DNA of 64,000 bases from NCBI GenBank assembly GCA_022822265.1, contig JAJECA010000050.1, positions 81,075 to 145,074 on the forward strand. Direction: 5' to 3'. The DNA is from Acidimicrobiia bacterium. Lineage in GTDB: Bacteria > Actinomycetota > Acidimicrobiia > Acidimicrobiales > Bin134. A program made the translations under genes and the position numbers. Below, one piece after another: positions 38,288 through 59,697 of the stretch (position 1 is the stretch's first letter; the number at the start of each line of letters is the position of its first letter). Below the pieces are notes generated by a model. That model was not told the origin of the DNA. It ran no database searches and worked only from the letters and a program-made list of their open reading frames with translations.

Positions 38288-38836
38288 GTGAAGTTGACCA
38301 GTGAGCTGGTGGATCCCCGGGGCCAAGTAGTGGTCAACGACGACGCGCTGGCCTCCCGTCAGGGCCACACCCTGGGGCCACTGACCATCGGTTTCCTGGT
38401 CAACGAGTACAACCCCTCGTCCGGCCCCGACTTCACCCGCTACACCGAGGTGCTGGAACAGGAGTTCCGCCACCGCCTAGACGTGGACGCGGTGGTCCGC
38501 CAGCACAAGCCGGTGCTCAGCCGCCCCGCGGGTGACGAAATGCTGGCCTCGTTCCGGGCCTGCGCGGGGGTGGTCAACGGCCTGGCCAAATGAGGCTCAT
38601 GCACGTCGGGCAGTGTGCTCGACGCCGTGAACCTGGAGAGGCTGGGCATCCCCACCGTCACCGTGGTGACTGAGCCCTTCACCGTGGCCGCCGACACCGT
38701 GGCCCGCTCCTTGGGCATGCCCGACGTCCCCCGGGTGGTGATCCCCCACGACTACCTAAGCGAGGACACCGACGCCATCGCCAAGAAGCTCGAGCCTCTG
38801 CTCGACGAGATTCTCGACCGGTTGCTGGTTCGCTGA
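38288..38836 (+). CDS. UGSC-motif selenoprotein (in-frame TGA at 38591-38593 read as Sec)
   Basis: ORFs 38288..38593 and 38615..38836 are in one frame, separated only by this TGA. The read-through sequence is ...VNGLAK-U-GSC-TSGSVLDAVNLERLGIPTV. A hairpin starts 10 nt after the TGA. The start may instead be TTG at 38294. Confidence 0.75.
38604..38624 (+). promoter_or_regulatory. Candidate bacterial SECIS hairpin
   Basis: cgtcgggc-agtgt-gctcgacg: 8 bp including one G-U pair, with GU in the apical loop, beginning 10 nt after the UGA. Confidence 0.5.
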
Positions 38837-50134: not shown

Positions 50135-50605
50135 CTAGCTCAGCGCCTTGATGTCGGCGATGATCACGGCGGCGTGCTCAGCCAAATCCTGACCTTCAAG
50201 GTCATAGGTCTTGGCCACCATGCCGTCGGGTGAGATCAGATAGCTGATCCGCCGGGGCAAGCCATATTCGAAGTAGGGCTCGCCCTCGGCCCGCTCGGCG
50301 TCGTAGGCCCGCCCCACGGCCCGGTCGGGGTCGGAGATCAGCGCGAACGGGAAGCTCTCGCCATCCACGAAGCCCTTCTGGTCCTCCACGGAGTCGAACG
50401 ACGCCCCCACCACTACGGCGTTCAGGGCCTCGAATTCGGAGATTCGATCACGGAATCCCTGTCCCTGAATCGTTCAACCCTTGGTGGACGCCTTTGGGTA
50501 CCACCAAAACGCCACCCAATTCCCCCGCAGATCAGCCAGCGACAGATCGTTCCCGTCTTGGTCGGGCGCGGTGAACTCCGGCGCCTTCGTTCCTTCGCTC
50601 AACAT
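50135..50605 (-). CDS. bcp: Bcp-type peroxiredoxin with selenocysteine (TGA at 50474-50476) at the peroxidatic position
   Basis: ORFs 50474..50659 and 50135..50413 are in one frame, separated only by this TGA. The read-through sequence is WWYPKASTKG-U-TIQGQGFRDRISEFEALNAVVVGASFDS, and it fits the PxxxTxxC motif of Bcp (E. coli YFYPKAMTPGCTVQACGLRD). ATG at 50605. Confidence 0.8.
50439..50459 (-). promoter_or_regulatory. Candidate SECIS hairpin
   Basis: On the minus-sense RNA, GGGAUUC-CGUGAUC-GAAUCUC forms 7 bp including one G-U pair, with GU in the loop, starting 14 nt after the UGA. Confidence 0.4.
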
Positions 50606-56242: not shown

Positions 56243-57445
56243 ATGCCCGAAGCAGTCATCGTCGCCACCTCCCGCACGCCCATCGGGCGAGCCGTCAAGG
56301 GCTCGCTGGCCGACGTACGTCCCGACGACATGTCGGCATTCGTCATCGAAGACGTGCTCGGCAAAGTTCCCCAGATCGACGGGGCCGATGTCGAGGACGT
56401 GATGTGGGGCTGCGCCCAGCCCGCGGGCGAGGCCGGCTACAACATCGCCCGACTGTCGGGGCTGCTGGCCGGGCTCGACGTGCCCGGCGTAACCGTCAAC
56501 CGCTACTGCTCCTCGTCGCTTCAAACCATCCGCATGGCGGCCCACGCGGTGCGGGCCGGCGAGGGCGACGTGTTCGTGTCCGGCGGGGTGGAGTGTGTGA
56601 GCCGTTTCGCGGCCGGGGCGGCCGACCGGGGCGGCAAGAACGACAAATTCGCCGAAGCCGAGGCCCGCTCAGCCGACCGCAGTGGCGAGGGCACCCCGGT
56701 GTGGGAGCCCCCCGAGGGCCTGCCCGACATCTACATCGCCATGGGCCAGACCGCCGAGAACGTGGCCCAAGCCTGGAACGTGAGCCGCGAGCGCCAAGAC
56801 GAGTTCGGGGTCAGGTCGCAGAACCGGGCCGAGGCCGCCCAAGAGCGGGGCTTCTTCGAGAGGGAGATCACCCCGTATCCGCTGGCCGACGGCACGCTGG
56901 TGAGCAAAGACGACGGCATCCGGGCCGGCACCGTTATCGAGAAGGTCTCGCAGCTAAATCCGGTTTTTCGGCCCGACGGGACAGTTACCGCGGGCAATGC
57001 CTGCCCGCTCAACGACGGGGCCGCCGCGGTGGTGGTGATGAGCGACACCAAGGCCGCGGAACTGGGCGTGCGGCCGCTGGCCCGGATCGTGGCCTCTGGA
57101 GTGGCTGCGGTGAACCCCGAGATCATGGGCCTTGGCCCCATCCCGGCCATCACCCAGGTACTGGACCGAGCCGGCATGACCATCGACGATGTCGACCTGG
57201 TGGAGATCAACGAGGCCTTCGCGGCCCAGGTGATCCCCTCAGCCGATGAGCTGGGCATCGACTACGACAAGCTCAACGTGAACGGCGGAGCCATTGCTTT
57301 GGGCCACCCCTTTGGCATGACCGGTGCCCGCATCATGGGAACCCTGCTCAATGGTCTGGAAGATGCCGACAAGACCATCGGCGTTGAGAGCATGTGCGTG
57401 GGCGGCGGCCAGGGCATGGCCATGATCGTCGAGCGGCTCAGCTGA
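56243..57445 (+). CDS. Acetyl-CoA C-acyltransferase (thiolase)
   Basis: VIVATSRTPIGRA, NRYCSSSLQ (active-site Cys), NGGAIALGHPFGMTGAR, CVGGGQG. AGGAG lies 6 nt upstream of the ATG. Confidence 0.92.
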   Translation: MPEAVIVATSRTPIGRAVKGSLADVRPDDMSAFVIEDVLGKVPQIDGADVEDVMWGCAQPAGEAGYNIARLSGLLAGLDVPGVTVNRYCSSSLQTIRMAAHAVRAGEGDVFVSGGVECVSRFAAGAADRGGKNDKFAEAEARSADRSGEGTPVWEPPEGLPDIYIAMGQTAENVAQAWNVSRERQDEFGVRSQNRAEAAQERGFFEREITPYPLADGTLVSKDDGIRAGTVIEKVSQLNPVFRPDGTVTAGNACPLNDGAAAVVVMSDTKAAELGVRPLARIVASGVAAVNPEIMGLGPIPAITQVLDRAGMTIDDVDLVEINEAFAAQVIPSADELGIDYDKLNVNGGAIALGHPFGMTGARIMGTLLNGLEDADKTIGVESMCVGGGQGMAMIVERLS

Positions 57446-58703
57446 CGAAGGGGTTGGCTGCGCCCGAACGGGTCCCGGGCGTAAACGTGACCGGCATCGA
57501 CACCACGCCGGTCATCAGCAGGTTGCCGGGATAGGGCTTAAATACGTCGAGGTCGATCTCGTAGTCGCCGATGCGGGCGAGAACGTCTCGCAGCATGAGC
57601 TCCGACTCGATGCGGGCAATCGACGACCCTATGCAGCGGTGGCCGCCCAACCCAAACGCCAAGTGCTTGTTCGCCTCTCGGTCGATGCGCACCTCGTCGG
57701 GGGCGTCGAACATCGCCGGATCGTGGTTGGCCGTCACCCAGCTGATGAACACGATGTCGCCCCGGCGGATCTGGCGGCCACCCAATTCCACATCGCGGGT
57801 GGCGGTGCGGGTGAGGGTCTCGCTGGGGCTGTAGTGGCGCAAGAACTCCTCCACCGCAGCCGGGATCAGGCTCGGATTCTCGATGAGCCGGGTGCGGTCC
57901 TCGGGATGGGTGCCTAGGTGGTGCAGACCCCACGACACCAGCGATGTGGTGGTGTCAAGGCCGCCCGCCACTAGGTTCCACATGATGGCGGTGATCTCGT
58001 CGTCGTCCAGCATCCGGCCATCCAGCGGGGAAGAAACCAACGCAGTGGTGACATCGTCGGCCGGGTTGTCCCGGCGGAACGCGGCAAAGTCGCGAAGCTC
58101 CCCCCACATGTCTGGTTGATGGGCGATTGCGCTCTTATACCGCTCGTCGGTGGGCTCGTACGACGAGGTGGCGTGGAAGAAGTCGGCGTAGTGCTGCCAG
58201 TTGGACGAGACCATGCCCATCATTTCCAGCGTCAGCACGGCGGGCACCGGCGTGGTGTAGTCGAGCACTAAGTCGGCTTCGCCCGACTCGATGATCTCGT
58301 CGATGAACCACGCCGACACCGCCTCCATCCGGGGGCGGTTGCTCTCCACTGCGTTGATGGTCATGAGGGGGTTCAGCACCCGCCGCAAATCGGCGTGCTC
58401 GGGACCGTCGATCTCCGACACTCCCTGGCGGGGGATGTAGCCCGGTCGGGGCACCCCGCAGATGCCCATGTAGGAGATGCCATCGGGGGAATCGGGCTCG
58501 TATTTGTGGGCGAACGTCTCGTTGTCTCGGGCTACCTGGGCCACCGACTCGTAGTCGGTGACCATCCAGAAGCCGCCATAGTGCTCGTTGAACACCACCG
58601 GACAGCGCGCCCGCAGCTGTTGGTAGCGGCTATGGCGATCGGCGATGAACTCCGGCGTCTGATGATCGACGTCGATCGTGGCATCTGCTGTCTCGGCGTC
58701 CAC
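57438..58703 (-). CDS. Cytochrome P450
   Basis: Heme loop FGLGGHRCIGSSIA, ExxR (EEFLRHYSP), and the I-helix AGGLDTT. Confidence 0.92.
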   Translation of the reverse strand: MDAETADATIDVDHQTPEFIADRHSRYQQLRARCPVVFNEHYGGFWMVTDYESVAQVARDNETFAHKYEPDSPDGISYMGICGVPRPGYIPRQGVSEIDGPEHADLRRVLNPLMTINAVESNRPRMEAVSAWFIDEIIESGEADLVLDYTTPVPAVLTLEMMGMVSSNWQHYADFFHATSSYEPTDERYKSAIAHQPDMWGELRDFAAFRRDNPADDVTTALVSSPLDGRMLDDDEITAIMWNLVAGGLDTTTSLVSWGLHHLGTHPEDRTRLIENPSLIPAAVEEFLRHYSPSETLTRTATRDVELGGRQIRRGDIVFISWVTANHDPAMFDAPDEVRIDREANKHLAFGLGGHRCIGSSIARIESELMLRDVLARIGDYEIDLDVFKPYPGNLLMTGVVSMPVTFTPGTRSGAANPFVS

Positions 58704-58741: not shown

Positions 58742-59014
58742 CTATGAGCCGTAGACCAGCACCCCTTCGGCATATTGCTCGGCGAAGAGTTTCAGCACCT
58801 CGCCGACATCGGCATGTCGCATGCAGTCGTCTTTGGAAAAGAGCATCTCACCGTCGACTTCGACGTCGAAGATGCCCGATGCGCCGGTCACCAGAGACAG
58901 CTCTTCGATGATGTGCTGATAGTTCTGAAGCAGATCCTTGGCAGCGCTCACGGCGTGCTCGGAAAAGTCTCAAGGAACTCAATAGGTGATGGTGATCCGG
59001 TGCTTTTGCGCCAT
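58742..59014 (-). CDS. SelW/Rdx-family redox protein with two in-frame TGA codons (putative UxxU in place of CxxC/CxxU)
   Basis: From ATG at 59014 the frame reads MAQKHRITITY-TGA-VP-TGA-DFSEHAVSAAKDLL...SLVTGASGIFDVEVDGEMLFSK... The TGA codons are at 58979-58981 and 58970-58972. The frame runs continuously into the 69-aa ORF 58742..58951, and upstream it is closed by TAG at 59024-59026. The pattern matches the Rdx fold: a beta-strand, then the redox motif, then G.G.F.V.VDG.L.FSK. Confidence 0.65.
58941..58958 (-). promoter_or_regulatory. Candidate SECIS hairpin
   Basis: On the minus-sense RNA, GCACGC-CGUGA-GCG(C)UGC forms 6 bp with one bulged C and GU in the loop. It starts 11 nt after the second UGA and 20 nt after the first. 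Confidence 0.3.
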
Positions 59015-59079
59015 GGCCGCAGGCTACCGCCGGGCAGAGCGCATCCCGCACATTTCTTCGACCGCTACTCTCGGAGCCC

Positions 59080-59697
59080 ATGAACCAACCAGCCGCCGAG
59101 GTCGGCGTGTTCGAGGCCATGCACACCCAGAGGGCGGTGCGGCGCTATTTGCCCGACCCGGTGCCCGAAGAGCTGATCACCCAAGTGCTGGACGCCGCCA
59201 TCCGAGCACCCAGCGCCATCAACGGGCAGTTCGCCCGATTCGTGGTGGTCACCGACCCCGAGAAACGCCGCCAATTGGCCGATCTCTATCTCGACGCCCA
59301 GCAGGAGTCGTACAACAACCCGTCGGCGGCGGGCACCGAGTGGCTGCGGGGCCAGGAGGCCGGGATCGTCGAAAAGGCCGCCAAGTTCGCCCGTGAAGTG
59401 GGCAATGTGCCGGTGTTCATCATCGTGTGCTCCACCCAGCGGGGAGTGAGCCACTCGGTTTACCCTGCGGTGCAGAACCTATTGGTGGCGGCCCGCAGCC
59501 TGGGGTTGGGCACGGTGCTGACCACGCTGCACGCCTTCCGGGCCAACGAGGTTCGGGCCGTGTTGGGCATCCCCGACGACGTCCACATCGTGTGCGGCAT
59601 CCCGATGGGATGGCCGGCGGTGCCCTTTGGGCCTGTCCGGCGCCGGCCGTTGTCTGAAGTGGCGTATTGGAACCAGTGGGAGGACCACAATGAGTGA
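59080..59697 (+). CDS. Nitroreductase family protein
   Basis: MHTQRAVRRYLPDPVPEELI..VLDAAIRAPSA, VQNLLVAARSLGLGT. Confidence 0.85.
   Translation: MNQPAAEVGVFEAMHTQRAVRRYLPDPVPEELITQVLDAAIRAPSAINGQFARFVVVTDPEKRRQLADLYLDAQQESYNNPSAAGTEWLRGQEAGIVEKAAKFAREVGNVPVFIIVCSTQRGVSHSVYPAVQNLLVAARSLGLGTVLTTLHAFRANEVRAVLGIPDDVHIVCGIPMGWPAVPFGPVRRRPLSEVAYWNQWEDHNE

Follow-up and report, generated by a model that had tools for sequence, protein, structure and literature searches.

A bacterial SelW-like gene with two conserved in-frame UGA codons at its redox motif in the Poriferisocius clade of Acidimicrobiia

The 64,000-nucleotide (64-kb) stretch of Acidimicrobiia DNA analysed here (contig JAJECA010000050.1, hereafter the window) carries on its minus strand an Rdx/SelW-like gene whose redox motif has TGA at both of the positions where relatives carry cysteine (Cys) or selenocysteine (Sec, U). 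The reading frame of this gene is intact, the motif is conserved and aligned with that of its homologues, and the RNA downstream of the motif is under constraint of its own. Judged from the sequences compared, the UxxU form of the SelW-like gene (TGA at both motif positions) is real, derived, retained, rare and restricted to one lineage. We consider it probable that the gene is functional and that a single Sec insertion sequence (SECIS) element serves two Sec insertions, which would generate a UxxU protein capable of forming a diselenide.

Reading frame, protein family and origin of the UxxU form

The gene and its two in-frame stop codons are located as follows.

58742–59014, minus strand: Rdx/SelW-like selenoprotein coding sequence, 90 codons followed by TAG (58742–58744), with the ATG at 59012–59014; assigned by homology and frame conservation
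58979–58981, minus strand: first in-frame TGA, codon 12, at the first Cys column of the CxxC/CxxU motif and derived from TGC
58970–58972, minus strand: second in-frame TGA, codon 15, which is the Sec codon inherited from the ancestral CxxU motif

Read on the minus strand, the gene begins ATG GCG CAA AAG CAC CGG ATC ACC ATC ACC TAT TGA GTT CCT TGA GAC TTT. Codons 2–11 encode AQKHRITITY, the two TGA codons are separated by GTT CCT, and after codon 15 the frame stays open until the TAG. A mechanical list of open reading frames contains only a GTG-started fragment of 69 amino acids (58742–58951). An earlier note on this DNA, made from the sequence alone, had recognized that the frame extends beyond this fragment up to the ATG at 59014; on re-reading the minus strand, that extension is as claimed, and the coordinates and sequence given for it proved exact.

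By sequence, the window gene belongs to the Rdx/SelW-like family; it is SelL-like at the level of the motif and not a SelL homologue. With U read as C, residues 6–76 match the Pfam family Rdx (PF10262) with an expect value (E) of 9e-15 and a score of 55.1 bits against a cutoff of 22.6, and the protein scores 40.0 against a cutoff of 34.2 for NCBIfam TIGR02174 (CXXU_selWTH); both matches bear out the Rdx/SelW placement made in the earlier note. Rdx is the sole Pfam match of the protein, with no match to the SelL or peroxiredoxin-like (Prx-like) proteins. The equivalog NF041051 (SelTWH_Campy) was scored at 63, below its cutoff of 88, and the window protein is therefore not a member of that group.

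Alignment to Rdx homologues, a check that the earlier note had proposed, places both TGA codons on the CxxC cysteines of four solved structures found in a PDB sequence search (2fa8, 3dex, 2ljk, and 2ojl). For instance, ITITYCVPCDF is aligned with IAIRYCTQCNW in 2fa8, VQIEYCTQCRW in 3dex, and IVVEYCEPCGF in human MIEN1 (2ljk). The motif thus lies at the conserved CxxC/CxxU position of the Rdx family, and its composition, UxxU, is the variant feature. The gene shows what is expected of a selenoprotein gene, namely an in-frame TGA aligned with the Cys or Sec of homologues and sequence conservation on both sides of it.

The structural work was done on P0016, the closest full-length Cys homologue, which has a CVPC motif and is 49% identical to the window protein. 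Its AlphaFold2 model (predicted local distance difference test score, pLDDT, of 82) consists of a strand at residues 13–19, the CVPC motif at residues 20–23, and a helix at residues 26–43, i.e., a thioredoxin-like fold in which the redox motif follows strand β1 and precedes helix α1. The top Foldseek matches of the model, 2obk, 2fa8, 2oka, 3dex, and 2p0g, are all bacterial Rdx/SelW-related proteins, with template modelling (TM) scores of up to 0.78/0.90; MIEN1 and mouse SelW come next.

We compared the gene with 43 species-representative genome loci, to which the window sequence was added to give 27 UxxU sequences in the clade analyses, and with the best 80 relatives from JGI metagenomes. The loci nearly identical to the window belong to sponge-associated Acidimicrobiia metagenome-assembled genomes (MAGs) named Candidatus Poriferisocius or Sva0996. 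The second motif position is TGA in all 43 genome loci and in 79 of the 80 metagenome loci. The first position is TGC in 17 of the 43 genome loci, corresponding to the classical CxxU motif, and these come from Ilumatobacteraceae, other Acidimicrobiia, Chloroflexota, two distant MAGs, and four deeper Poriferisocius genomes. It is TGA in the other 26, all of which fall in the Poriferisocius clade. The string TAT-TGA-GTT-CCT-TGA recurs unchanged in 26 species-representative genomes, some of them complete long-read chromosomes, and in a single JGI metagenome contig. The metagenome relatives comprise 78 CxxU forms, a single CxxC form, and a single UxxU form from the same Poriferisocius clade.

In a neighbour-joining tree from which the first motif codon was left out, the 27 UxxU sequences formed one clade inside the CxxU forms, and the four CxxU Poriferisocius genomes were its sister. 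Monophyly and nesting within CxxU point to a single TGC>TGA event without reversion, and no second independent UxxU origin within the subfamily was found among the 43 genome loci and the best 80 metagenome loci. Comparing orthologues in this way had also been suggested in the earlier note; it yields outgroups with TGC followed by TGA, one clade with TGA at both positions, and conservation of the 11 codons upstream of the first. The codons that surround the motif are minor ones in this genome (GTT, 7% of Val codons; CCT, 7% of Pro codons; TAT, 25% of Tyr codons), and all three are invariant in the motif context of the 27 UxxU sequences (58970–58984, minus strand). CxxU relatives mostly have TAC-TGC-GTC, suggesting that a GTC>GTT change accompanied TGC>TGA.

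The frame is conserved in all 27 UxxU sequences, which contain no indels. Within the UxxU clade, none of the 12 sites in motif codons 12–15 is variable, and variable sites amount to 12 of 30 in codons 2–11 and 69 of 162 in codons 37–90, rising to 49 of 60 in the 60 nt before the ATG and 58 of 60 in the 60 nt past the stop. The ratio of nonsynonymous to synonymous substitution rates (dN/dS, Nei–Gojobori) is 0.22 for codons 2–11 versus 0.21 for codons 28–90, and variation at wobble positions is similar in the two parts of the gene (6/10 in codons 2–11 versus 41/58 in codons 33–90; p = 0.49). Thus, purifying selection on the protein acts upstream of the first UGA just as it does on the remainder, and KHRITITY, the sequence directly ahead of the first TGA, is that of strand β1 in CxxU and CxxC relatives. 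Such selection, as estimated from these alignments, speaks against both a pseudogene and a product begun at the internal GTG. The earlier note had argued against a pseudogene, and the intact frame, the invariant motif, and the equal dN/dS of the upstream segment bear this out.

Two side observations concern the same set of sequences. A 13-nt leader motif, GGCG[G/A]TAGCCTGC, is located at 59019–59031 on the minus strand, 5–17 nt 5′ of the ATG, and is kept in all 27 UxxU sequences with one base change (in locus L021); the DNA further 5′ is highly variable. This motif could serve in ribosome binding or regulation, or it could belong to a shared divergent promoter region. In the protein, residues 63–65 (58820–58828, minus strand) form a Cys-rich loop, with an equivalent loop in loci L001–L030. 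All Poriferisocius versions, UxxU and CxxU alike, have one or two extra Cys in this SK..C..H loop (DDCM, DDCC, ATDC, or ATCC), where the loci of Ilumatobacteraceae, Chloroflexota, and other outgroups have G-R or Q-K-R. The extra loop Cys could be a resolving thiol.

A SECIS-like hairpin and other selenoprotein genes of the window

The RNA downstream of the motif can fold into a SECIS-like element, described here at three levels.

58941–58958, minus strand: SECIS-like upper stem-loop, a 3+3 bp stem with a bulged C and the apical loop CGUGA (58948–58952)
58935–58963, minus strand: two-helix SECIS-like hairpin, made of a lower helix UCC/GGA and the upper stem-loop; minimum free energy (MFE) of −9.5 kcal/mol
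58921–58979, minus strand: extended imperfect lower stem of the UxxU sequences, in which the A of the first TGA and the GTT pair with downstream CAGAAC-U

The upper stem-loop, composed of GCACGC, the loop CGUGA, and GCG-C-UGC, begins 11 nt past the second UGA and 20 nt past the first; the earlier note had described a bulged hairpin at this place with the same two offsets, and it is present as stated. According to published rules, a bacterial SECIS (bSECIS) has a loop of 3–9 nt, a stem of 4–16 bp, a G at loop position 1 or 2 (usually as G[G/U]), a UGA-to-loop spacing of 16–37 nt, and an MFE no higher than −7.5 kcal/mol (PMC13188914). The hairpin conforms to these rules for both UGAs, with a 5-nt loop, a G at loop position 2 followed by U, and a UGA-to-loop spacing of 17 nt for the second UGA and 26 nt for the first. 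In the minimal SECIS of Escherichia coli, the upper stem begins 11 nt downstream of the UGA; the second UGA has this canonical SECIS geometry.

Conservation also marks the hairpin at the RNA level. All six pairs of the upper stem are invariant in the UxxU clade, and synonymous variation is suppressed over codons 12–27 (3/16 versus 41/58; Fisher p = 3e-4). The two-helix model was further tested on 17 diverse Acidimicrobiia sequences by comparison with slid registers, and 84.6% of its cells are paired versus at most 58.8% in those registers. Pair 21–45 of the lower helix is CG, GC, AU, or GU across Acidimicrobiia, a modest covariation. The sequences are no more than suggestive of the extended lower stem as a real element: 97.7% of its cells are paired, which would place the second UGA inside a helix, and its changes in the UxxU clade are one-sided (GC>GU, UA>UG), with no compensatory ones. 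RNAalifold recovered only three pairs from 22 diverse sequences because Chloroflexota and other outgroups have the hairpin in a shifted register. An Rfam scan of the whole window at gathering thresholds returned no match, which is uninformative since Rfam covers bacterial SECIS elements poorly.

Two other genes in the window also contain an in-frame TGA.

50135–50605, minus strand: Bcp/PrxQ-type peroxiredoxin (Prx) gene with an in-frame TGA at 50474–50476, in the context YPKASTKG-U-T
38288–38836, plus strand: UGSC-family gene with an in-frame TGA at 38591–38593, in the context AK-U-GSC

In both, the TGA is at the known Sec position of an established bacterial selenoprotein family, and they are the two further genes for which the earlier note had claimed a TGA at a catalytic Cys. 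In-frame TGA codons occur in only three genes of the 64 kb, and each of the four falls on the redox motif of an already known family of selenoproteins. The presence of the Prx and UGSC selenoprotein genes makes the organism, by inference, a Sec decoder, and Actinomarinales, a sister order within the class, is documented as having Sec machinery (bioRxiv 10.64898/2026.04.03.716425). No tRNA gene was found when the 64-kb window was scanned for tRNAs.

The hairpins of the two neighbours have apical loops that contain GUG: the UGSC loop is GUG, and the Prx gene has a local 7-bp hairpin with the loop CGUGAUC. The GUG-containing loops of the SelW-like, Prx, and UGSC genes suggest a lineage-specific SECIS loop signature. 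Measured from the U of the UGA to the GUG of the loop, the distance is 22 nt in the UGSC gene, 25 nt in the Prx gene, 21 nt for the second UGA of the SelW-like gene, and 30 nt for its first.

Decoding of the two UGA codons

The evolutionary and mechanistic steps that we propose are the following. The ancestral C-V-P-U motif became U-V-P-U by a single TGC>TGA transversion in the ancestor of the subclade, and the change has persisted since. Translation would begin at the ATG at 59014, with ribosomes passing both UGAs, and the hairpin at 58935–58963 (loop CGUGA) would recruit SelB-GTP-Sec-tRNASec for both codons. The second UGA would use the classical geometry, and the first would rely on the same hairpin from 9 nt further off. 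The outcome would be two Sec, spaced by three residues where helix 1 begins, which may alternate between a diselenol and an intramolecular diselenide, as in SelL. Use of a single SECIS has been proposed for bacterial UxxU genes (PMC13582414), and SelL has a diselenide (PMC2397514).

A number of observations weigh against this reading. The first UGA, at 30 nt, is outside the 21–25 nt range of the three canonical UGAs of the window, no second hairpin in register for the first UGA was found, and the UGA–SECIS spacing is stringent in E. coli. The hairpin is no more stable than shuffled sequences (z = −0.06 and 0.32), and thermodynamic significance was accordingly rejected as evidence for a SECIS. 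The search for SelA and SelB, with E. coli queries in tblastn, gave no match in the window and the 43 loci (~6 kb per genome, ~330 kb of DNA in all); selC, selD, and the tRNA-ReC gene are likewise absent from this DNA. In locus L013, a complete chromosome (NZ_OZ244791.1), codon 11 has changed from TAT to TAA in an otherwise intact gene, which may represent a recent inactivation or an N-terminally truncated form. Recoding in E. coli is ~30–40% efficient per event (PMC4513850), which would make two events costly.

Decoding of the first UGA, or of both, as Cys would also keep the gene read through, and the product would effectively be CxxU or a Sec/Cys mixture. Possible routes are a SECIS- and SelB-dependent tRNA-ReC (selC*), Cys-tRNASec under scarce selenium, and a near-cognate tRNACys. 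The first of these has a precedent: tRNA-ReC is present in ~56% of genomes with UXXU-type hydrogenases versus 2.3% of other Sec-type genomes, and the same study states explicitly that, in genomes with tRNA-ReC, Cys may be inserted at one of the UGAs or at both (PMC13582414). Cys insertion would be in line with the non-canonical distance between the first UGA and the SECIS, and it would explain an easy fixation of TGC>TGA, a near-neutral change if Cys were still inserted. However, a neutral state predicts that TGA, TGC, and TGT would interchange, and TGA is kept in all 27 sequences over three sub-lineages. Likewise, the restriction of in-frame TGA to three genes in 64 kb, all at selenoprotein motifs, gives no sign of wider Cys recoding. 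On balance, we regard Cys at these positions as unlikely, though worth keeping in view.

A more improbable explanation is that the first UGA mostly terminates translation, so that the gene is silenced, attenuated, or decaying, or that only the 69-amino-acid fragment is made from the GTG at 58951. Public annotation agrees with such a fragment: a protein search returned 24 homologues (P0001–P0024), 20 of which are stored as exactly 69 amino acids, beginning at the internal GTG within the loop of the SECIS, so that gene callers have truncated them all at one and the same stop. In L013, the true TAA at codon 11 is also in its favour, as is the inefficiency of two successive recoding events (PMC4513850). 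Yet the GTG belongs to the conserved SECIS loop of every CxxU relative as well and is no clade-specific start, and a fragment that lacks strand β1 and the redox motif would miss the core of the fold. The 27 sequences have no frameshift or indel, an equal dN/dS on both sides, and an invariant motif, and the divergence of the protein (82–97% identity) is comparable to that of neighbouring genes, all of which counts against this explanation.

Errors of sequencing or assembly, or a genome-wide reassignment of UGA, have a negligible probability: nothing in support of either was found, and although one window could in principle hold an error, 26 independent assemblies, made in several projects and with several technologies, agree on the codons, which rules error out, and in the window, of ~66% GC, UGA is the commonest stop, ending 22 of the 39 confident long genes, which rules out reassignment (code 4 or 25).

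Relation to known UxxU systems, gene neighbourhood and significance

Bacterial SelW-like (PF10262) proteins were catalogued in 2022 and 2026 only as CxxU, with one Sec (PMC9312934, PMC13188914), and the Global Ocean Sampling (GOS) data, in which SelW-like ranks first in abundance among marine selenoprotein families, likewise show it as CxxU (PMC2398784). The window protein has in common with these proteins the domain, the fold, the size, and the position of the motif, as well as a Sec codon at the second motif position and a SECIS just downstream. The difference is in the first motif residue, encoded by a Cys codon in the CxxU proteins and by UGA in the window gene. No literature report of a bacterial UxxU SelW-like protein was found.

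Other proteins with this motif are better known. SelL/Prx-like proteins have two Sec with two residues between them in a redox motif of the thioredoxin fold (PMC2397514, PMC2398784), an arrangement matched by the two UGA codons of the window gene. They are found in marine and aquatic organisms, marine bacteria included, and their closely spaced UGA pair presumably depends on one SECIS (PMC2397514, PMC2398784). However, the SelL family is Prx-like and not Rdx, and its diselenide is known, whereas that of the window protein is a predicted one.

SELENOW itself has a reported UxxU form in amphioxus and Ostreococcus lucimarinus, both eukaryotes, which belongs to the same family and shows the same Cys-to-Sec change at the first motif residue (PMC7539508). 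The eukaryotic SECIS is located in the 3′ untranslated region and is free of positional constraint, in contrast to the bacterial SECIS, which lies in the coding sequence and is distance-dependent, so that decoding poses a different problem in the two cases. Since the window clade is nested in bacterial CxxU forms, its UxxU motif originated independently of that of eukaryotic SELENOW.

The UXXU Group 4 [NiFeSe] hydrogenases are a bacterial case in which UxxU arose from CxxC/CxxU and one conserved SECIS lies downstream of both UGAs (PMC13582414). They pose the same ambiguity between Sec and Cys, by way of tRNA-ReC, as the window gene (PMC13582414). In these hydrogenases, the motif is a metal ligand in a large enzyme, with no clear stepwise CxxU>UxxU path (PMC13582414); in the window clade, unlike the hydrogenases, this path is clear. 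UxxU is thus documented in bacterial Prx-like/SelL, MerA-like metal-binding, and FmdB-family proteins, as well as in Group 4 hydrogenases (PMC7539508, PMC13188914, PMC13582414), and the earlier note overrated how unusual a double-Sec form would be, given these bacterial families and eukaryotic SELENOW.

Two genes flank the SelW-like gene.

57438–58703, minus strand: cytochrome P450 gene, 38 nt downstream and on the same strand (Pfam p450, E = 9e-31)
59080–59697, plus strand: nitroreductase-family gene, divergent, 65 nt upstream (Pfam Nitroreductase, E = 9e-27)

Both neighbours are present at all 26 UxxU loci and at none of the four CxxU Poriferisocius loci (L026, L028, L029, and L030), which have a thiolase gene directly 3′ of the SelW-like gene. 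From this shared pattern of presence, the change of gene order and the change of motif belong to one and the same clade. On the minus strand, no terminator-like site was found between the SelW-like gene and the P450 gene, and their arrangement suggests that the two are possibly co-transcribed. The linkage to P450 and nitroreductase may reflect a functional redox module, or merely shared ancestry. A more ambitious proposal, that one coding-region SECIS programs two SelB-dependent Sec insertions 9 nt apart, yielding a genuine diselenide Rdx protein, and that its low-potential UxxU centre was selected together with P450 and nitroreductase as a clade-specific redox module, is put forward only tentatively, and we hold it to be rather unlikely.

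Few marine bacterial selenoproteins are as abundant as the SelW-like proteins, which have been catalogued only as CxxU. Through the 69-amino-acid entries, the active-site half of a selenoprotein is systematically missing from public annotation. The clade is also a natural experiment, in which 27 UxxU sequences can be set against a CxxU sister group that is one motif nucleotide apart and has the same SECIS. It allows testing how far SelB can reach from a bacterial SECIS, whether Sec is decoded at both of two UGAs 9 nt apart, and whether tRNA-ReC, and with it Cys, is involved. Similarly, it allows measuring the effect of a diselenide on the redox properties of the Rdx fold.

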